DNA of 64,000 nt from an uncultured Ectothiorhodospiraceae bacterium (GTDB lineage: Bacteria; Pseudomonadota; Gammaproteobacteria; S012-40), in contig CALZHW010000001.1 of NCBI GenBank assembly GCA_945787125.1, forward strand, positions 8,323 through 72,322. The letters are read 5' to 3'. The stretch's first letter is position 1. Every line of letters begins with the position of its first letter. Position numbers and translations under genes: made by a program. Below, one piece after another: positions 3,395-61,405 of the stretch. The notes beneath the pieces were generated by a model that did not search any database, was not told the origin of the DNA, and saw only the letters and a list, made by a program, of their open reading frames with translations.

Positions 3395-3470
3395 GCGTTC
3401 AAATTTTTTCCCATAACCAGCGCCCGCATTGGCAATGCCTTATCGAGAGTGTTGAACTCCGATTCTGCGT
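3395..3470. repeat. Family-A MITE-like palindromic element, truncated copy
   Basis: ttcccataaccagcgcccg...ccttatcgagagtgttgaactccgattctg matches the left arm and right terminus of the full element at 3801-3996. Confidence 0.5.
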
Positions 3471-3800: not shown

Positions 3801-3996
3801 CTCACAATCAGAGTTCAAACTATTTCCCATAACCAGCGCCCGTAGCGGCAAAACCTCATCGAGAGACGCCGGGAATACCCCTATGTAGGCTTGACGGCAG
3901 CATCCATGTGGCACATAGGGCAACACTCTCGATAAGGTTTTGCCGCTACGGGCGCTGGAAAGAGGCACTTTTGCAGCCCTGAACTCCAATTGTAAG
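3801..3996. repeat. Family-A MITE-like palindromic element (~195 bp), full copy
   Basis: Terminal inverted repeats ctcacaatcagagttcaaac / gaactccaattgtaag. Internal long inverted arms ccagcgcccgtagcggcaaaacctcatcgagag ... ctctcgataaggttttgccgctacgggcgctgg. At least 12 further copies in the window. Confidence 0.8.
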
Positions 3997-10996: not shown

Positions 10997-11173
10997 TTCA
11001 AAAATTACTTCCCTTAATCAGCGCTCGTAGTGGCAAGGCCTTATCGAGAGTGTTGGCAGCATGGATGCTGCCGTCAAGCCTACACGGATGTACTCACGGC
11101 GTCTCACGATAAGGTTTTGCTACTACGAGCGCTGGAAGGTGGCACTTTTGCAACTTTGAAGTCCGATTGTGAG
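10997..11173. repeat. Family-A MITE-like element
   Basis: cccttaatcagcgctcgtagtggcaaggccttatcgagagtgttggcagcatggatgctgccgtcaagcctaca...ttgaagtccgattgtgag. Left TIR degenerate. Confidence 0.75.
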
Positions 11174-15989: not shown

Positions 15990-16215
15990 ACGTTGCCGCT
16001 TTGAACTACTAGGAGCAATTGTCGACGAGTCCATGGATGGATGAAGGTACGAATCCATGGATGGATGAAGGTAGAACAATGCAGGAGCAATTGTCGAGAA
16101 CAATGCACTAGGGCAGGACGCCCATAGGTACGAGCCCATGGATGGGTGAAGGTAGAACAATGCAGGAGCAATTGTCGAGTATAACGCAGGAGCAGTTATC
16201 GAGGAGCAATTGTCG
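15990..16215. repeat. tandem direct-repeat tract between the two flagellin genes
   Basis: Motif AGGAGCAATTGTCGAG at about 16011, 16083, 16162 and 16203, with a degenerate copy at 16189. Motif CCATGGATGGATGAAGGTA at about 16031, 16055 and 16137. About 80-bp higher-order unit repeated twice. Confidence 0.6.
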
Positions 16216-16385
16216 AGAATGGAAGCTGTAGCAAGGGAAGTTCACAAGTGCAGTATTTTCGATCGTTTGAGCTTGAGCCCTAACTATCTACAGAAAACGA
16301 TCGAAAAATCTTTGCGAAACCAGCTTTCCGCGCAACTGCCAGGGTGCGGATGTACACACCCGTGCGATTGAGTGAATTCTATGGA

Positions 16386-16477
16386 CTCACAATCAGAGTT
16401 CAAAGTTACAAAAGTGCCGCCTTCCAGCACCCGTAGCGGAAGGTGGCACTTTTGCAAGTTCGAAGTCCGATTGTGAG
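16386..16477. repeat. Family-A element, short hairpin-only variant (92 bp)
   Basis: ctcacaatcagagttcaaagttacaaaagtgccgccttccagcacccgtagcggaaggtggcacttttgcaagttcgaagtccgattgtgag: only the outer palindrome is present. Lies 45 bp downstream of the flagellin-2 stop. Confidence 0.7.
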
Positions 16478-16523
16478 TTACTGAAAACTGTATGCACTAG
16501 AAGACAAACAACATTACTCTATG

Positions 16524-22467: not shown

Positions 22468-22666
22468 TCACAATCGGAATTCAAACTATTCCTAGGAATC
22501 AGCGCTCGTAGTGGCAGGGCATTATCTTATAGAGAGTAGAGAGTGTTGGCAGCAGGGATGCTGCCTTCAAGCCTACAAGGACGTATTCACGGCGTCTCTC
22601 GGTAAGGTTTTGCCGCTGCGGGTGCTGGAAGGTGGCACTTTTTTCATTTTGAACTTCGATTATGAG
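22468..22666. repeat. Family-A MITE-like element
   Basis: ctcacaatcggaattcaaactattcc...gcgctcgtagtggcagggcattatc...tgaacttcgattatgag. Inserted between flgI stop and flgJ start. Confidence 0.8.
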
Positions 22667-26248: not shown

Positions 26249-26527
26249 AGTCAGCACCCGCAACGGTAAAGCCTTGCCGCTACGGGTGTGCTGGAAGGTG
26301 GCACTATGCAACTACTGAACTCTGATTGTAAGTTACAATCAGAGTCAACTACTCTCCATAACCAGCGTCAGTAGTGACAAAGCCTAATCGAGAGTGTCGG
26401 CAGCATGGATGCTGCCGACAAGCCTACAGGGACGTATTCACAGCGTCTCTCGATAAAATTTTGCCACTACGGGCGCTAGAAGGCGGCACTATGCAACTTA
26501 TGCAACTACCGAGTTCCGATTATAAGT
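26249..26527. repeat. Family-A elements: truncated right-half copy (26249-26332) abutting a full copy (26333-26527)
   Basis: First copy ends ...ggtggcactatgcaactactgaactctgattgtaag. A full copy ttacaatcagagtcaactactctccataaccagcgtcagtagtgac...gagttccgattataag follows immediately. Lies between flgF start and flgE stop. Confidence 0.8.
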
Positions 26528-27971: not shown

Positions 27972-28034
27972 GGAACGTGAATGAAATAACTTACCTAGCT
28001 TACATCTCATCTTCAGCCCGTCTCGGCACGTTCC
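27972..28034. repeat. Family-C hairpin repeat
   Basis: ggaacgtgaatgaaataacttacctagcttacatctcatcttcagcccgtctcggcacgttcc. Shares the arms GGAACGTG...CACGTTCC and loop core CATCTTCAGCCCGTCT with the copy at 32058-32122. Confidence 0.45.
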
Positions 28035-28055
28035 TTAACGCTGCTCTAAACTGAT

Positions 28056-29900: not shown

Positions 29901-30096
29901 TCTCAAGTTTCGGGGCTCAACTAGTCTCCATAACCAGCGCCTGTAGTGGCAAAGCCTTATCGAGAGTGTTGGCATTGGCAGCCTGGAAGCTGCCACCAAG
30001 CCCACAGGGACGTGTTCGCGGCGTCTCTCGGTAAGGTTTTTGCCGCTACGGGTGCTGGAAGGTGGCACCTTTACAACTTTGAACTCCGATTGAAAG
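29901..30096. repeat. Family-A MITE-like element
   Basis: ...ctccataaccagcgcctgtagtggcaaagccttatcgagagtgttggcattggcagcctggaagctgcc...ggtggcacctttacaactttgaactccgattgaaag. Lies between cheR stop and flgB operon promoter. Confidence 0.8.
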
Positions 30097-32057: not shown

Positions 32058-32122
32058 CCACTCTGTAGGAACGTGTATGAAATAACTTACCCATCTTCAG
32101 CCCGTCTTGGCAGTTTATTTCA
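32058..32122. repeat. Family-C hairpin repeat
   Basis: ggaacgtgtatgaaataacttacccatcttcagcccgtcttggcagtttatttcatacacgttcc: 18-bp perfect inverted arms. Lies in the divergent cheV/flgA intergenic region. Confidence 0.45.
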
Positions 32123-32124
32123 TA

Positions 32125-32140
32125 CACGTTCCATAGGCAT
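32125..32140 (+). promoter_or_regulatory. possible sigma-54 promoter for flgA
   Basis: AGGCATAATGCTTGCT (GG-N10-GC), about 45 nt upstream of the flgA ATG. Confidence 0.35.
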
Positions 32141-34576: not shown

Positions 34577-34760
34577 CCCACAACATTCAAACTATCCTCC
34601 ATAATCAGCACTCGTAGTGGCAAGACTTTTCGAGAGTGTTCGCAGCAGGGATGCTGCCGTCAAGCCTACAGGGATTTATTCACGACGTCTCTCGGTAAGG
34701 TTTTGCCGCTACGGGTGCTAGAAGGCGGCACTTTTGCAACTTTAAATACTGAAGTTTAAG
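34577..34760. repeat. Family-A MITE-like element
   Basis: cccacaacattcaaactatcctccataatcagcactcgtagtggcaagacttttcgagagtgttcgcagcagggatgctgccgtcaagcctacaggg...gcacttttgcaactttaaatactgaagtttaag. Inserted between the GT2 and DUF2064 genes. Confidence 0.75.
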
Positions 34761-36414: not shown

Positions 36415-36533
36415 GTTATTCTCCGGTACTTTACTGTTTTAATTACCATGCCCCAATAAATCGCTTGTTTAACGGGCAAATGTTTTTTATCCTGTAACGA
36501 TGATAAATCAGCAATCCAATTTATTTAATACAA

Positions 36534-36695
36534 CCTAGAATAATCAGTTGGCGCGAATTTTTAGTGCAAGATATTGAAGTGCATAGTGAATTCAAGAATT
36601 GCATGGTCACCTAATTGGTGATCTGCATATTTTTGAATTTGCTAGGCGCATCAAGAGCTTGTGCTAGAAATCGTGGTTCAACTGATTAATCTAGG
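36534..36695. repeat. Family-B MITE-like element (162 bp, 17-bp terminal inverted repeats)
   Basis: cctagaataatcagttg...caactgattaatctagg. About 96% identical to the copy at 47981-48142. Confidence 0.7.
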
Positions 36696-36743
36696 TTCAA
36701 CTATTCAATTAGATGCAACAGCCAATAAAATGTTACAAGCTTA

Positions 36744-40068: not shown

Positions 40069-40254
40069 CTCACAACCGGAGTTCAAAGTTGTAAATGTGC
40101 CACCTTCCAGCGCCCGTAGCGGCAAAACCTTACCGAGAGACGCCGTAAATACATCCTTGTGGGCTTGACGGCAGCATCCCTGCAACACTCTCGATAAAGG
40201 CCTTGCCACTACTGGCGCTGATTACAAGGAATAGTTTGAACTCCGAAACTTAAG
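40069..40254. repeat. Family-A MITE-like element (opposite orientation)
   Basis: ctcacaaccggagttcaaagttgtaaatgtgccaccttccagcgcccgtagcggcaaaaccttaccgagagacgcc...ctctcgataaaggccttgccactactggcgctg...tttgaactccgaaacttaag. Overlaps the last codons of asnB. Confidence 0.8.
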
Positions 40255-42027: not shown

Positions 42028-43560
42028 TTAGTTCTGATAACCTCCACCACCGGGTGTTTTAATCGTTAAAATATCACCTTTGTTAACGCTAAAATTTGTT
42101 TTTGCAGGTAAACGTTTGCCGTGACACCAATTCTCACCGGCTGCAGCTGCGCCGCCATTTAACATGCCCCAGGGCAAACGATTACGTCGCTCTGTCAAGA
42201 CTGTGACTTCAGCGCTATCGAGAAATTCATATTCACGAATAATACCTTCACCGCCCACAAACATTCCTTTACCGCCTGAATTTTCTCTCACAGCATAACG
42301 CGTGATGCGTAACGGGAAATGGGTTTCCAAAGATTCAATTGGAGTGTTTAAAGTGTTTGTCATGTGTGTTTGCACCGCGGACAAACCGTTACCGTTTGCA
42401 CTGGCTCCCATACCACCACCGATAGTCTCGTAATAATCCCAACTATTATTACCTCGCCCGCCCATGGCAATATTGTTCATACTGCCGTGACTCGCTGCGG
42501 CCATTTTTTCAGGAATCGCCAGCAACAAAGCGCCCATTAACACATCAACCACTCGTGTGCTGGTTTCAACATTGCCTGCTGCCACTGCCGCAGGCCTTTC
42601 AGCATTGAGCAAACAACCCAACGGTGCGCTAATTTTTATTCGTCGAAAGCTTCCGGCACAAGCCGGTGTAGTCGCTGGCATTAAGCAACGAAACACATAG
42701 AATACCGATGCTGCGGCAACGGACAACGGGCAATTAATATTGCCTTTGACCTGCTGCGCAGTGCCAGCAAAATCCACCACTATTTCATCAGGCATGACCT
42801 TAATGCTAACGACAATTGGGATATTTTCATTGCCCATACCATCATCATCCATATAATCGGTGAAACGATACTCACCCACTGGTATTTGTTTCAAGGTACT
42901 ATCTGACAGACGCTGGGCATAGGCATTTAATGCATCCAGTGCATTCGTATAATTCTGCTGGCCGGTGCTTTCAATCAACCGAGTTAGGCGCTGTGCGCCC
43001 AACTGATTAGCGCTAATTTGCGCGGAAATATCACCGTTTGACTGCACGGGATTTGCAACGTTACTCAACAGTTTTTGCATAAAAACATCATCAATGCTAC
43101 CCGCATGAATCAACTTATAAGGAGAGATCACCATGCCTTCTTCATCGAGTGATTGAGAAATCGGCATCGAGCCAGGAGAACAGGCACCAATATCTGCATG
43201 ATGCGCACGATTCGCAATAAAACCCGTGAGTATTTCGGTGACAAAGACAGGCGCAATCAATGTCACATCGGGCAAATGAGTGCCGCCGAGATAAGGATCA
43301 TTAAGAATCAACATGTCACCCGGCAACCATTCCACCTGACTCACAATGTCGCGCATCGCGTAAGCCATACTACCCAGATGAACCGGGATGTGAGCGGCTT
43401 GCGCGCAAAGCTCACCCTGCAGGTCAAAAACCGCACAAGAAAAGTCCAATCTGTCTTTGATATTCGGAGAAAATGCAGAACGTTGCAACACCGCCCCCAT
43501 TTCGTCGCAAATAGCTGATATTCGGCTAGAAAACAAACTTAGTTCGATCGCATTCATCAT
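42028..43560 (-). CDS. hydantoinase B / oxoprolinase family protein (HyuB-like)
   Basis: 510 aa with Hydantoinase_B signature (LNDPYLGGTHLPDVTL). Ends 2 bp before asnB start. No HyuA partner in the window. Confidence 0.7.
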   Translation of the reverse strand: MMNAIELSLFSSRISAICDEMGAVLQRSAFSPNIKDRLDFSCAVFDLQGELCAQAAHIPVHLGSMAYAMRDIVSQVEWLPGDMLILNDPYLGGTHLPDVTLIAPVFVTEILTGFIANRAHHADIGACSPGSMPISQSLDEEGMVISPYKLIHAGSIDDVFMQKLLSNVANPVQSNGDISAQISANQLGAQRLTRLIESTGQQNYTNALDALNAYAQRLSDSTLKQIPVGEYRFTDYMDDDGMGNENIPIVVSIKVMPDEIVVDFAGTAQQVKGNINCPLSVAAASVFYVFRCLMPATTPACAGSFRRIKISAPLGCLLNAERPAAVAAGNVETSTRVVDVLMGALLLAIPEKMAAASHGSMNNIAMGGRGNNSWDYYETIGGGMGASANGNGLSAVQTHMTNTLNTPIESLETHFPLRITRYAVRENSGGKGMFVGGEGIIREYEFLDSAEVTVLTERRNRLPWGMLNGGAAAAGENWCHGKRLPAKTNFSVNKGDILTIKTPGGGGYQN

Positions 43561-43686
43561 TTGAACAGTGTAACATACCGCAGTTAACCTAATTTAGACC
43601 TCAGTTTTTACTTGAATTTAAATAGTTAGTTTTTTAGACTGAGTCAAGATCGTTAAATTCTCACAACCCTACAACCGGAGTACAAA

Positions 43687-44268
43687 ATGGAACATAAACT
43701 TCCTGAATTACCCTATGCGATGGACGCGTTAGCGCCAACTATTTCCAAAGAAACCCTGGAATACCATTACGGTAAACATCACCAAACTTATGTGACGAAT
43801 TTGAATAACCTGATTAAAGGTACAGAATTCGAAGCTTTGTCACTTGAAGACATTATTAAAAAATCTTCAGGCGGTATTTTCAACAATGCGGCACAAGTCT
43901 GGAATCATAGCTTTTACTGGAATTGCCTTAGCCCAAATGGCGGCGGTGAGCCCAACGGCGCTTTAGCCGATGCCATTAATAAAGCATTTGGTTCATTTGA
44001 AAAATTCAAAGAAGAATTCTCAAAAACATCAATCACGACTTTCGGCTCTGGCTGGGGTTGGTTGGTGAAAAACGCTGACGGCAGTTTAGCATTAGCCAGC
44101 ACCAGCAACGCAGGTACCCCAATGACCAGTGGCCAAACCGCTTTATTGACCTGTGATGTTTGGGAGCACGCTTATTATATCGATTACCGCAATGCTCGCC
44201 CGAAATACCTTGAAGCTTTCTGGAGCTTGGTAAACTGGGATTTCGTTGCAAAAAACTTAGCGGCTTAA
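43687..44268 (+). CDS. sodB: Fe/Mn superoxide dismutase
   Basis: 193 aa. [36 protein letters not shown] and [11 protein letters not shown] metal-binding motifs. Confidence 0.9.
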
Positions 44269-44278
44269 CAACTTTAGG

Positions 44279-44452
44279 AATGGGCACGTGATAACTTCCC
44301 TGTTTGGCGCTCTGATTTAGTTTGTATTTGTTCGTTCTGATTAAGTAAAAGTGCAGGAATAGTTGTTCTATTCCGAGCTTTTGCGATTGAAGAACGAGCG
44401 AAGACGGGCTGAAGCAGAGATGCCAAACAGGGAAGTTATTGCGCGCCCATTC
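44279..44452. repeat. Family-D palindromic element, copy 1 (32-bp inverted arms flanking about 108 bp with inner hairpins)
   Basis: Arms ggaatgggcacgtgataacttccctgtttggc / gccaaacagggaagttattgcgcgcccattcc. Inner hairpin ggaatagttgttctattcc. Confidence 0.5.
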
Positions 44453-44568
44453 CTTACTGCATCAGAGCAAGGTTTTACCTTGCTCTGATCCCTTTATCGC
44501 TACCGCGCTGTTTACTTCGCTATCTCCCCGTTCTAAAATTGTCGACCACGCAGCAATGCGTGTTACGG

Positions 44569-44737
44569 CTTCAGGAGCCTGTCCGAGAATGGAAAGCCTA
44601 CTGCGGATTGTTATTTTGACCATTTTTTCCGTTCATTTTCGTTGAATAGAATGACTATTCGCCTCAAATGAACGAAAAAACTGCTCTAAAATAACTTTCC
44701 CTCGCTACGGCTTCCATTCTCGGACAGGCTCCTTGTG
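44569..44737. repeat. Family-D palindromic element, copy 2 (27-bp inverted arms flanking about 112 bp)
   Basis: Arms caggagcctgtccgagaatggaaagcc / ggcttccattctcggacaggctccttg. Inner hairpins cgttcatttt...aaatgaacg and gaatag..ctattc. Confidence 0.5.
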
Positions 44738-44841
44738 TTACTGGGAACGAATCGCCACTTAAGCAGTGGCTCAATCAGCAGTTATATAAATAATATTCGG
44801 TATAACATCGCCGTATTTTTGGTTTTATTGGTGGATAAATC

Positions 44842-46020
44842 ATGAGTAGTCAACACATAATGAACACCTACGGTCGTTTGCCGGTTACCTTTGAACGCGG
44901 CGAAGGCTGTTATCTTTTTGATACTACGGGTCAAGCTTATCTCGACGCCCTCAGTGGCATTGCCGTTTGCAGCCTGGGACATGCACACCCAGCGATCCAG
45001 CAGGCTTTGACCGAACAGGCAGGCAAACTCGTACATACCTCTAATCTTTATCAAATACCTAAACAAAACGAACTCAGCGATAAGCTTTGTGAACTTGCGG
45101 GCATGGAAAACGTGTTTTTCAGTAATTCCGGCGCCGAGGCTAACGAATGTGCGATTAAAATCGCCCGTTTATACGGTCATAATAATGAGATCAAAGAGCC
45201 CGTTATCATTGTCACCGAAGGCAGTTTTCACGGCCGTACCCTGGCAACATTATCAGCCACAGGTAATCGTAAAATCCAGGCTGGATTTGAACCCTTAGTG
45301 CAAGGTTTTGCCCGAGTGCCATTCAATGATATTGACGCCATAAAAAACGTCGCGAAGAATAATAAAAACGTGGTTGCTATATTAATCGAACCCATTCAGG
45401 GAGAAGGCGGGGTAAACGTTCCAGCTGATGATTATCTCAAGCAAATTCGTCAACTTTGCGATGAACATAACTGGCTAATGATGCTGGATGAAATCCAAAC
45501 CGGCATGAATCGAACCGGCCAATGGTTTGCGCATCAACATAACAATATCAAACCCGATGTGATGACCCTGGCAAAAGCTCTTGCCAATGGCGTGCCTATC
45601 GGCGCTTGTCTCGCAAATGGCAAAGCCGCAACAACGTTACAACCAGGCAATCACGGCTCCACCTTTGGCGGTAACCCACTTGCCTGCGCCGCTGCATTAG
45701 CGACCATCGCGATGATGCAAACTCAAGAGATTACTAAGAAAGCACACAGCAGCGGAGAATACCTTATCAATCATTTGCGCTCAATGCTGGCTGAAGTGCC
45801 CGGCATCGTCAACATTCGCGGCAAAGGTTTGATGATAGGCATAGAATTGGAACGCGACTGCACCGAGCTAGTGGCTAAAGCCTTGGATAAAAACCTATTA
45901 ATCAATGTAACCGCACAAAACACCATTCGCTTACTGCCACCACTCATCATTAGTCGCGCAGAGATGGACTTACTCAGCGACAAACTGAGTGCAATAATCA
46001 AAGAATTTTTGGCAAAATAA
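44842..46020 (+). CDS. argD: acetylornithine aminotransferase (class III PLP aminotransferase)
   Basis: 392 aa. Typical class-III aminotransferase N-terminus and PLP-lysine region. Adjacent to argF. Confidence 0.8.
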
Positions 46021-46021
46021 A

Positions 46022-46936
46022 ATGACAAAACACTTTCTTACCTTACTCGATCTCAGTCCTGATGAATTGCGCAGTTTGATTAATCGCGCCGTCGAGCTTA
46101 AGACATTACACAAAAGTGGCCAGATTTACGAACCACTTAAAAACAAAGTGCTGGGAATGGTTTTTGAAAAATCATCCACCAGAACACGCGTTTCTTTTGA
46201 AGCAGGCATGATTCAACTCGGCGGCCAGGCAATTTTCTTGTCGCCACGCGACACCCAACTGGGTCGCGGCGAACCGATTGAGGACTCTGCCCGCGTATTA
46301 TCCAGCATGCTGGACATCATCATGATCCGCACCTTTGAGCACAGCACATTGGAGACTTTCGCCAAATATTCCAGTGTGCCGGTCATTAATGCGTTGACAG
46401 ATTTATATCACCCTTGCCAATTACTGGCCGACTTGCAAACCTTCCAAGAATTGCGTGGCGACATTCAGGGCAAAACCGTGGCCTGGATAGGCGATGGCAA
46501 TAACATGTGCCACTCTTATATCAACGCAGCGAGACAGTTGGATTTTCAACTCAATATCGCAGCGCCAGAAAACTTCGAGCCGCTCGAAGAAGTGCTAACG
46601 CCCAAAAACAATAACATCAACGTAATGCATGATCCATTACAAGCGTTAAATAACGCCGACTTGATTGTTACCGATGTCTGGGCCAGCATGGGTCAGGAAC
46701 ATGAACAAAAAGTACGTGAACGCGCCTTTGCCAACTACCAGGTAACGTCGGTACTGATGCAAAAAGCCAAGTCGGACGCGCTGTTTATGCATTGCTTGCC
46801 CGCTCATCGCGGCGAAGAGGTTGCTGCGGAGGTTATCGATGGGCCACAAAGCGTGATTTTTCAAGAAGCCGAAAATCGCTTGCATTCACAAAAAGCCCTA
46901 CTTGAATTTCTCATGGGTTATATGCCAGCTTCATGA
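46022..46936 (+). CDS. argF: ornithine carbamoyltransferase
   Basis: 304 aa with carbamoyl-phosphate binding STRTR and ornithine-binding HCLP motifs. Confidence 0.85.
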
Positions 46937-47979
46937 GTGTCCGTTTGTTAGAGTTAAAAAACATTGAATGTCGTTATGGCTCAACGATTGCGGTAAAAGA
47001 CTTATCGTTTCGTGTTTATCCCGGAGATTTAATTTGCCTGCTTGGCCCGAGTGGTTGTGGCAAAAGCACTGTACTGCGTGCAATCGCTGGGCTAGAACCC
47101 ATTTATAACGGACAGATCATTTTAGACCAGAAAATAGTCAGCAGCGCAAGCACTACCCTGGCACCGGAAAAGCGTGGCCTGGGCATGGTGTTTCAAGACT
47201 ATGCACTTTTCCCACACATGAATATTGAAAAAAATGTCTGTTTTGGTGTGCGACACTTATCCGCCAAAGAACAAAAACGACTCTGTGATGAAATGCTAGG
47301 AATTGTCGGCCTGGGCGATTATCGCCAACGATATCCGCATGAATTATCGGGCGGACAACAACAACGCGTTGCGCTTGCTCGGGCATTAATTGTCAAACCC
47401 AAGCTTATTCTGATGGACGAGCCTTTCTCTAATCTGGATATCGATTTACGCGAACGCTTAAGCCTTGAGGTGCGAGAAATTCTGAAAGATCAAGGGCTCA
47501 CTGGTATCATGGTGACTCATGACCAATCTGAAGCATTCGCCGTAGCAGACAAGATTGCGGTTTTATATGATCACACACTGCAACAATGGGATACGGCATA
47601 TAACTTATATCACGGGCCGATAAATCGATTCGTTGCTGACTTCATTGGTCAAGGCGAATTCCTCAAAGGTCGACTGTTAAAACCTGACACGGTAGAAACA
47701 GAGATAGGTATTCTAAGTGGTGATCGAGCCTATGACTGGCCAGTGGATACTGCGGTAGACGTGCTTATCAGGCCTGACGATATTGTCCCGCAGGCGGATA
47801 GTGCATTAAAAGCCGAAGTAAAATACAAATCATTCAAAGGCTCGGAAATATTTTATCAACTACAATTGACCACCGGCGGGAAATTGCTAGCGGCATTCCC
47901 AAGCCATTTTGACTTTTATCTCGGCGAGATTATTGGCATCGATCTAGACATACATCACTTGATTGCATTCAAACGATAA
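46933..47979 (+). CDS. ABC transporter ATP-binding protein (PotA/FbpC-like, C-terminal TOBE domain)
   Basis: 348 aa. Walker [10 protein letters not shown], signature [15 protein letters not shown], Walker [12 protein letters not shown]. No permease or substrate-binding gene follows. Confidence 0.8.
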
Positions 47980-47980
47980 T

Positions 47981-48142
47981 CCTAGAATAATCAGTTGGCG
48001 CGAATTTTTAGTGCAAGATATTGAAGTGCATAGTGAATTCAAGAATTGCGTGGTCACCTAATTGGTGATCAGCATATTTTTAAATTTGCTAGGTGCATCA
48101 AGAGCTTGTGCTAAAAATCGTGGTTCAACTGATTAATCTAGG
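47981..48142. repeat. Family-B MITE-like element
   Basis: Near-identical to 36534-36695. Begins 1 nt after the ABC gene stop codon. Confidence 0.75.
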
Positions 48143-48171
48143 ATGATCCCTTTGGGTAAAAAAAAAACAAA

Positions 48172-57436: not shown

Positions 57437-57787
57437 ACTCAAGTTACGGAGTTCAAAGTTGTAAAAGTGCCACCTTCCTGCACCCGTAGCGGCAAAACCT
57501 TAGCGAGAGACGCCGTGAATACGTCCATGTAGGATACTCTACGGTATGGGCGACGAGGGCGGGAGGCCTATCTACAAAGACAAGCTCATGGCTTAAGGCT
57601 TGAGCGGCCTTCCCGGATACTTCTTCATCGTACTTTAAATGACCGGATTAGTCCTGTCGCATAACCTTTTGGTTACTGAATTTGATCATACAAGGCTTGA
57701 CGACAGCATCCGTGCTGTCAACACTCTCGATAAGGCCTTGCCACTACGAGTGCTGATCACGGGAAATAGCTTGAACTCCGATACTTG
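57437..57787. repeat. Family-A element split by a nested ~170-bp insertion (left half 57437-57528, insert 57529-57698, right half 57699-57787)
   Basis: The left half actcaagttacggagttcaaagttgtaaaagtgccaccttcctgcacccgtagcggcaaaaccttagcgagagacgccgtgaatacgtccatgtagg and the right half cttgacgacagcatccgtgctgtcaacactctcgataaggccttgccactacgagtgctg...ttgaactccgatacttg together reconstruct one element. Confidence 0.65.
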
Positions 57788-61218: not shown

Positions 61219-61405
61219 CTCACAATCGGAGTTTAAATATTTTTCTCATAATCAACGCGCGTAGCGGCAAAACCTTATCGAGAGTGTTCGGCATGGATGC
61301 CACCCCAAGCCTACAGGGATGTATTCACGGCGTCTCTCGGTAAGGTTTTGCCGCTACGGGTGCTGGAAGGTGGTACTTTTGTAACTTTGAACTCCGAAAC
61401 TTGAG
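61219..61405. repeat. Family-A MITE-like element
   Basis: ctcacaatcggagtttaaatatttttctcataatcaacgcgcgtagcggcaaaaccttatcgagagtgttcggcatggatgcc...ggtggtacttttgtaactttgaactccgaaacttgag. Confidence 0.8.

Follow-up and report, generated by a model that had tools for sequence, protein, structure and literature searches.

Why does this genome hold 573 bp between sodB, the gene for Fe superoxide dismutase, and argD, the gene for acetylornithine transaminase? A first-pass annotation of the window (the whole stretch of DNA analysed here, 64 kb) had seen two nested palindromes in this spacer with a perfect hairpin between them. It had offered several possibilities: another MITE family, a structured leader for argD-argF, an sRNA gene, or an elaborate terminator for sodB. 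Its naming of sodB, argD and argF as the flanking genes is borne out by NCBIfam (Table 1). The spacer is very probably an ordinary one of about 240 bp that has received two independent MITE insertions from two different families. The dispersal of the copies, the target duplication of the element 1 family and the spacers of relatives, which have neither element, indicate that "another MITE family" was the right choice among the four.

Both palindromes are real and lie far beyond chance. Element 1, which follows the sodB stop codon and precedes a native hairpin, has 33-nt arms (44276-44308 and 44422-44454) that are 91% complementary and 113 nt apart; none of 100 shuffles of the window gave such an arm match. 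It had been assigned to 44279-44452 with 32-nt arms, and both its extent and its arms are slightly longer. Element 2 has perfect 22-nt arms (44573-44594 and 44712-44733), again with no such match in 100 shuffles, and its former extent of 44569-44737 was slightly too wide. Neither arm sequence recurs elsewhere in the 64-kb window. The 179-nt region of element 1 is predicted to form one end-to-end hairpin (-115.2 kcal/mol, z = -16.9), and element 2 a whole-length foldback (-84.7 kcal/mol, z = -12.0), with 0/200 shuffles as good in each case. In these models, what had been called "nested hairpins" is better described as a single continuous foldback for each element. At 177 and 161 bp, the elements encode no transposase; the ORFs that overlap them are mechanical, 50 to 68 aa, with two longer ones running into the spacer. 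Their terminal inverted repeats, 33 nt (91%) and 22 nt (100%), have ends that are conserved across family copies.

Table 1. Features of the sodB-argD region and related copies elsewhere in the window (positions are those of the window).
Feature	Position	Strand	Evidence or remark
sodB (Fe superoxide dismutase), upstream flanking gene	43687..44268	+	NCBIfam NF007832, 351 bits vs 348-bit cut-off
TTA, left copy of target-site duplication, element 1	44274..44276	.	flank comparison
Element 1, full-length 177-bp MITE, GGAAYG...ATAACTT...CTTCAGCCCGTCT family	44277..44453	+ (better RNA-folding strand)	family register
Central motif GAATAGTTGTTCTATTC, apex of element 1	44357..44373	.	
TTA, right copy of target-site duplication, element 1	44454..44456	.	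flank comparison
Native post-sodB hairpin, 13-bp perfect stem, 3-nt loop TTT, no clear U-tract	44461..44489	+	-20.4 kcal/mol
Promoter-like TTTACT-17 nt-TAAAAT	44511..44539	+	upstream of element 2; also in L214 (1521) and L215 (3873)
Element 2, 161-bp MITE, GAGCCTGTCSGA...CTACTGCGGA...TTTCCCTCGCTACG family	44573..44733	- (better-folding strand of family)	44575-44731 by family register
Central motif GAATAGAATGACTATTC, apex of element 2	44644..44660	.	
argD (acetylornithine transaminase), downstream flanking gene	44842..46020	+	TIGR00707, 493 bits
argF, next after argD	46022-46936		NCBIfam
Partial degenerate copy, element 2 family (one arm and part of inner stem)	16205..16275	-	80% identity over 60 nt to element 2
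Short 63-bp internal-deletion derivative, element 1 family	27973..28035	+	TTA / TTA flanks
Short 65-bp internal-deletion derivative, element 1 family	32068..32132	+	18-nt perfect arms

The motif ATAACTT...CTTCAGCCCGTCT is common to element 1 and two short palindromes of the window, which one half of element 1 resembles. A scan with this shared motif, with one genome per species, matched 93 stretches in genome assemblies, almost all of them MAGs of uncultured marine or hydrothermal Gammaproteobacteria. The MAG SZUA-152 alone contains dozens, the matches are frequently at contig ends, and Desulfobacterales MAGs contain a diverged subfamily. The copies are colinear with element 1 over its full length, with a modal length of 177-178 bp, and the best match (L065:1549-1727) is 90.5% identical. 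Internal-deletion variants are common, and some copies have small nested insertions.

Identical 3-nt flanks are present in 35/56 copies of the element 1 family (TAA/TAA in 22 and TTA/TTA in 12, with mixed TAA/TTA in only 2), whereas the next 3 nt outward, which serve as a control, are identical in 0/56. An inverted repeat extending beyond the element would pair TAA with TTA. Thus, direct triplets that match within a copy and differ between copies mark a real target-site duplication, and as judged from these flanks, a 3-bp duplication (TAA/TAA or TTA/TTA) is genuine for this family. Element 1 itself reads TTA-GGAATGGG...CCCATTCC-TTA, with the hyphens marking its ends; its terminal sequence is GGAAYGKGCACG....

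The fetched loci, the plasmid collection and the viral contigs yielded no autonomous partner with ends of the element 1 type. The 214 fetched loci contained no full-length IS with matching ends, only neighbouring pairs of MITEs, and one candidate IS junction (L005) was rejected as a truncated copy beside an efflux-pump gene. The plasmid collection gave no match to element 1. In the viral contigs, the sole match to its terminal repeat is within a phage gene and was set aside as chance. The end of element 1 may resemble the IS5 inverted repeat.

Element 2 belongs to a second, larger family, which is also dispersed. Another MAG (L078) contains a 74%-identical copy, and the two have in common two asymmetric anchors exactly 88 nt apart; a metagenome scan with these anchors found the family at a minimum of 120 loci (>= 120). 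A conjugative plasmid of Pseudomonas sp. MPC6 carries a full-length copy, 75% identical over 161/161 nt, that is intergenic and has CTAG flanks. This copy, where there is no annotated feature, was the only one found when the plasmid collection was searched with element 2 or with its terminal repeat alone. The family ends and flanks, read from the listing of copies and the consensus, give CTAG-GAGCCTGTCCGAGAATAG...CTACTGCGGA...AAATAGAACAACTATTC...TTTCCCTCGCTACG...CTATTCTCGGACAGGCTC-CTAG, or in short form CTAG-GAGCCTGTCCGAG...CTCGGACAGGCTC-CTAG. Element 2 itself has degenerate 4-nt flanks (TCAG / CTTG), whereas most of the family has CTAG / CTAG. Since CTAG is palindromic, such flanks could be either a duplication or an inverted repeat that runs on past the element; only in a small subfamily are the flanks direct repeats (TTA/TTA). 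The 7-bp sequence GTGTTAC, repeated directly on either side of element 2, was rejected as a target duplication because its halves have native-looking counterparts in L214, and it is probably a chance repeat.

A scan of viral and prophage contigs found the element 2-type terminal repeat on real insertion sequences rather than MITEs. Contig L219 contains a complete 1637-bp IS, CTAG-GAGCCTGTCGGAGAAC...GTTTTCCGACACACTC-CTAG, whose product is a 461-aa DDE transposase of the IS1182 family (NF033551, 379 bits vs a 270-bit cut-off; Pfam DUF772 and DDE domains). In other contigs, an element 2-type end is followed by IS1182-like N-termini. These ISs, found on unrelated contigs, have no more in common with the element 2 family than the terminal ~13 nt (GAGCCTGTCSGAG) and a CTAG at either side. 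The interior of element 2 has no similarity to IS1182 ends above that of shuffled controls, and the idea that it is a simple deletion derivative of the ISs found was rejected because its interior has no significant similarity to them. A match limited to the ends is usual, since MITEs commonly share only the transposase-binding ends with their partners; MITEPsy1 of Pseudomonas syringae and its IS5-family partner ISPsy2 have only terminal repeats in common (PMC3189936). The IS1182 terminal bases and CTAG flanks thus make an IS1182-type DDE transposase acting in trans the likely mobiliser of element 2.

MITEPsy1 is also a parallel for the targets. It is active and makes a 4-nt duplication at CTAG/YTAA, and duplications of 3-4 nt at targets of this type are documented for IS5-type elements (PMC3189936). 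These targets parallel both the CTAG flanks of element 2 and the TAA/TTA targets of element 1. Unlike the elements here, which are whole-length foldbacks of 161-177 bp known from sequence, MITEPsy1 is 100 nt, has the terminal sequence GGAAGGTCTGAAAAAGCC, and its transposition has been shown by experiment.

The spacers of related genomes have neither insertion. In the protein collection, the two nearest relatives by ArgD (76% and 74% identity) keep the sodB-argD-argF order; their sodB-argD spacers are 240 and 187 bp, neither element is present, and aligning the spacers leaves clean gaps at elements 1 and 2. Removing element 1, one TTA and element 2 from the spacer of the window leaves 238 bp. 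Three more distant loci (ArgD 66-69% identical) have spacers of 103-208 bp. At orthologous sites, then, the window has both elements, and BLAST and profile searches found neither family in the five related argD loci, three of which have sodB upstream; at ~65-76% ArgD identity, these relatives show absence but no precise pre-insertion site. The first-pass annotation had proposed comparing related genomes to learn whether the structure is conserved upstream of argD or scattered: the elements are absent upstream of argD in relatives, and the copies are scattered. Neither element is conserved downstream of sodB in the relatives, so an elaborate sodB terminator is not borne out.

The relatives also identify what is native to the spacer. 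The hairpin between the two elements, ATCAGAGCAAGGT-TTT-ACCTTGCTCTGAT, is present as had been claimed, but with a 13-bp stem (Table 1) rather than a 10-bp stem at 44461-44485. Both close relatives have a hairpin right after the sodB stop codon (-26.2 kcal/mol in L214 and -23.5 kcal/mol in L215), with the position kept and the sequence differing in each genome. From this matching position, the hairpin of the window appears to be sodB's own terminator-like hairpin and to belong to neither MITE; a terminator scan did not flag it, and it is without a clear U-tract. Strong conservation in the spacer is confined to one block, GTTTACTT...CCGTT(C/T)TAAAATTGTCG, which holds TTTACT-17-TAAAAT, the putative argD promoter. 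A T-rich stretch just before argD is the third native feature. On this map, the sodB 3' untranslated region would contain element 1 ahead of the native hairpin, and element 2 would lie about 30 nt into the argD 5' leader.

Together, these observations suggest the following history. Element 1 would have entered at a TTA some 10 bases past the sodB stop codon, ahead of the native hairpin, with duplication of that TTA. Element 2 would have landed downstream of the conserved promoter-like block and before the argD start codon. Both were most likely moved in trans by IS5/IS1182-type DDE transposases: element 1 by an enzyme that makes 3-bp TWA duplications, and element 2, whose ends match those of real IS1182 elements, by one of the IS1182 type. 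At this locus the elements are most likely passengers: they would be transcribed as highly stable hairpins within the sodB 3' UTR and the 5' leader of argD, and their shape would be kept for the families' own propagation or tolerance.

Correia (NEMIS) elements of Neisseria and ERIC/IRU elements of enterobacteria are 100-155-bp intergenic foldbacks that are co-transcribed with their neighbours and can undergo RNase III processing or affect mRNA stability. They are unlike the elements here in sequence, in their TA duplications (Correia) and in their hosts. By analogy, they would be the model for how elements 1 and 2 act, if they have any effect at all; mRNA stabilisation, decay, RNase III cleavage, partial termination or read-through would then be incidental.

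Other palindromic repeats are seen in the window as well: one family of ~125 bp has about 10 copies, and another of ~170 bp has two 97%-identical copies. Several MITE families have colonised this genome heavily. With at least two further palindromic repeat families in the window alone, two more MITEs are unsurprising in this genome.

In size and makeup, both elements resemble known bacterial MITEs, which are <200 bp, have terminal inverted repeats, no coding capacity, short target duplications and many intergenic copies, and form long, very stable stem-loops at the RNA level (PMC3184786). They differ in that neither family matches an Rfam family, and element 1 has no cognate IS among the loci, plasmids and viral contigs examined. 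An Rfam 15 scan of 43000-46000 (E <= 1) matched no family; its sole hit was a sub-threshold match to a plant microRNA model (21.7 bits vs a gathering score of 80), which is chance. A close counterpart is bcr1 of the Bacillus cereus group, which is ~155 bp and has mobile-element signatures, short direct repeats and a non-conserved distribution; it is transcribed, and base-pair compensatory changes keep its structure at the RNA level (PMC3184786). It is from a different phylum, however, and differs from the elements described here in sequence and in its duplication, which is 5 bp long. The kind of element is thus well known. The two families themselves are very widespread and apparently undescribed; literature searches with other aims found no published description of either.

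The two elements have one feature in common. In the 64-kb window GAATAG-N5-CTATTC has just two matches, each exactly at the centre of one element, and two or more matches occurred in only 2/100 shuffles. The first-pass annotation had noticed this shared inner motif and had suggested that the elements are two diverged copies of one element. The observation holds, and the motif extends to both family consensuses in the form AAATAGAAC(A/G)ACTATTC, oriented alike with respect to the better-folding strand, which in both families reads GAATAGTYGTTCTATTT at the apex. Between the families, profile searches give weak matches (best E = 0.009), all of them colinear and in the same orientation. However, the terminal repeats, the flank signatures (TWA vs CTAG) and the conserved internal anchors all differ, similarity outside the 17-nt centre is not significant, and each element is far closer to foreign members of its own family (90% and 75%) than to the other element. 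These differences argue for two families, and descent from a single element is unlikely. Since the central motif is a family-level feature of both, a distant common ancestry is possible, as judged from the sequences.

Both families also appear to keep more structure than decaying or passive relics would need. In a 46-copy sample of the element 2 family, 37/52 predicted pairs, those of the inner stems included, keep pairing through two-sided changes. The corresponding count for the element 1 family is 29/65 pairs in 31 copies, with several G-U pairs that are essentially invariant. The copies are related by descent, and the pair counts therefore overstate the number of independent events; moreover, the family scans required exact anchors, so the invariance of the anchors is imposed. 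One strand folds better than the other. For element 1 this is the sense strand (-114.7 vs -80.8 kcal/mol, with 11 vs 1 G-U pairs), and the asymmetry holds in 31/31 copies of its family (-91.1 vs -60.0 kcal/mol; 10.5 vs 1.5 G-U pairs). In the element 2 family it holds in 108/109 copies (-83.1 vs -66.3 kcal/mol), but at this locus the poorer-folding strand of element 2 is sense. The first-pass annotation had expected a plain MITE to be dispersed at unrelated loci and to lack compensatory changes; the copies are indeed dispersed, and compensatory changes are in fact abundant. Since such changes and long stable RNA-level hairpins are documented for bacterial MITE-like repeats (PMC3184786), they do not by themselves indicate a local regulatory RNA.

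The two-sided pair changes, the invariant G-U pairs, the strand asymmetry and the shared motif hint at selection on a single-stranded form. One could imagine that both families are branches of one old mobile superfamily that is defined by its single-stranded fold and selected as RNA or single-stranded DNA. Its fold may be a ~170-nt hairpin with the apical motif AAATAGAACRACTATTC, invariant G-U pairs on one strand, and stems compensated across phyla. If this were true, the form under selection could be, among other options, an intermediate of transposition, a transcript able to recruit a host factor or to escape one, or a portable module for mRNA processing. We regard this idea as unlikely.

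Somewhat less probable again is that the elements, although mobile in origin, have been exapted and now act at this locus as RNA. On the sodB mRNA, element 1 would stabilise the 3' end or offer a site to RNase III; in the argD leader, element 2 would serve for processing or attenuation. Both elements are inside the putative transcription units, the better-folding strand of element 1 is sense, covariation keeps the hairpins of both families, and structure and effects at the RNA level are known for MITE-like repeats (PMC3184786). However, the family copies have no orientation bias relative to flanking genes: with crude longest-ORF gene calls, the ratio of sense to antisense is 19 : 11 for the element 1 family and 16 : 20 for the element 2 family, neither of which is significant (two-sided binomial p ~0.2 and ~0.6). 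The absence of both elements from relatives, which manage without them, the lack of an orientation preference and the poorer-folding sense strand of element 2 together argue against a dedicated role.

Whole-length hairpins, a strand asymmetry conserved family-wide and the CTAC found in the conserved asymmetric bulges of element 2 might instead suggest elements of the REP/REPIN or IS200/IS605 kind, for which a tyrosine (Y1/RAYT) transposase would move a single-stranded DNA hairpin. REPs and REPINs are dispersed extragenic palindromes that form hairpins; REPs are short, GC-rich, RAYT-linked and without target duplications. The elements here are AT-rich and 161-177 bp, unlike the 20-40-nt GC-rich REPs, and the ends of element 2 match DDE-type IS1182 elements. 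In addition, the element 1 family has a direct 3-bp target duplication that is variable and genuine, and Y1 transposition is not known to produce one. Movement of this type is very improbable.

It is equally hard to see the elements as one or two independent small-RNA genes. They are intergenic, with stable hairpins and one strand that folds better, but no promoter-like or terminator-like site brackets either of them, no Rfam family matches, neither is conserved at this locus in relatives, and their family copies stand in both orientations and in every kind of intergenic context, with roughly 10% (by crude calling) inside long ORFs. The idea that fares worst is a riboswitch or attenuator for argD-argF: element 2 is highly structured and upstream of argD on the probable leader, but no part of either element is conserved upstream of argD in relatives (element 2 in 0/5), its family is at >= 120 unrelated loci and on a Pseudomonas plasmid, and it has no Rfam match, so that dispersal and absence from orthologous leaders effectively refute it.

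For annotation, two MITE insertions explain the oddly long sodB-argD spacer and warn against calling a riboswitch or sRNA there. The presence of several MITE families in this genome is useful for repeat masking and for understanding breaks in the assemblies of related MAGs. Both families are reasonable material for asking why foldback MITEs conserve their structure, a modest question and not a surprising one. For the organism itself, stable hairpins in the sodB 3' tail and the argD leader could incidentally alter the expression of an oxidative-stress gene or of an arginine-biosynthesis operon.

The window contains a third palindromic repeat family of about 125 bp, with arms CAGCGCCCGTAGCGGCAAAACCTTATCGAGAG, whose approximately 10 copies within the 64 kb are 77-87% identical; no copy was found among the loci retrieved from other genomes. 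MITE-like repeats are very abundant in the source genome. In addition, there is a fourth foldback family of about 165-175 bp, with arms CCTAGAATAATCAGTTG, present in two copies. Downstream of argF is a gene for an ABC-transporter ATPase, and one of the copies starts at the stop codon of this gene. The 97% identity of these two copies suggests that the family has moved recently. A weak relative is found at metagenome locus L189.

Coordinates of the repeats and associated features (window numbering unless a locus is named)
Feature	Position or locus	Content
~125-bp family, first three copies	3833-3958, 11019-11134, 22553-22635	
~125-bp family, middle three copies	26362-26486, 29934-30065, 34606-34728	
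~125-bp family, last three copies	40100-40224, 57470-57533, 61253-61365	
~125-bp family, partial copy	3409-3454	
~165-175-bp foldback family, two copies	36532-36697, 47975-48148	
Region adjoining partial element 2 family copy	16040-16215, 16385-16478	tandem block and separate palindrome
Metagenome match to part of tandem block	L126:703-756	98% identity
Direct repeat flanking element 2	44560-44566, 44736-44742	GTGTTAC
Apparent copy end on plasmid	L216:3990-4003	GACAGGCTGCTAG
Region upstream of argD that includes the additional segment	44755-44830	~55 nt
Element 1 family copies with nested insertions	L022, L028, L034, L057, L060, L064, L075 and others	
Relatives noted for region just upstream of argD	L215, L229, L230, L231	

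The partial copy of the family of element 2 (the 161-bp MITE upstream of argD) adjoins a tandemly repeated block, the units of which contain GGTAGAACAATGCAGGAGCAATTGTCGAGA, a sequence whose end is similar to the element 2 terminal repeat. A separate palindrome nearby has 41-nt arms, which are found again next to copies of the ~125-bp family. Around element 2 itself, a 7-bp direct repeat lies a few bases outside the arms on both sides. This pair is probably a coincidence rather than a target duplication, since both halves have native-looking counterparts in L214, a close sodB-argD relative. On the Pseudomonas sp. MPC6 plasmid (L216), the apparent last ~14 nt of another copy directly precede the full-length family member, suggesting tandem or nested insertions at one CTAG.

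Within the additional segment upstream of argD, which has no counterpart in the two closest relatives, lie a small hairpin, GCCACTTAAGCAGTGGC, and a near-palindrome rich in A and T, TATATAAATAATATTCGGTATA. Several relatives have a short hairpin with a T-run directly behind it (for example, GGCTATAAAAAATATAGCC-TTTTTTT in L231) ~15-20 nt before the argD start. This arrangement resembles a conserved terminator or attenuator in the leader.

Several copies of the family of element 1 (the 177-bp MITE in the sodB 3' region) carry small nested insertions at fixed points, among them a ~22-44-nt unit, CTAAAGCGCCTACTGTTGGTGC, in some cases doubled, and GGCAACTGCTCCTGCGTTGCTCTACCTCCTGCATCCATGCAGTCGTC. These insertions suggest still smaller modules, mobile or slippage-generated, inside the MITE. 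Desulfobacterales MAGs (Deltaproteobacteria-type; L001, L011, and L041) hold a diverged subfamily, which keeps the internal motif and central loop and has different terminal repeats (GGGTTCACGCAAAAATAACTT...). Its occurrence there implies either cross-phylum transfer or great age.
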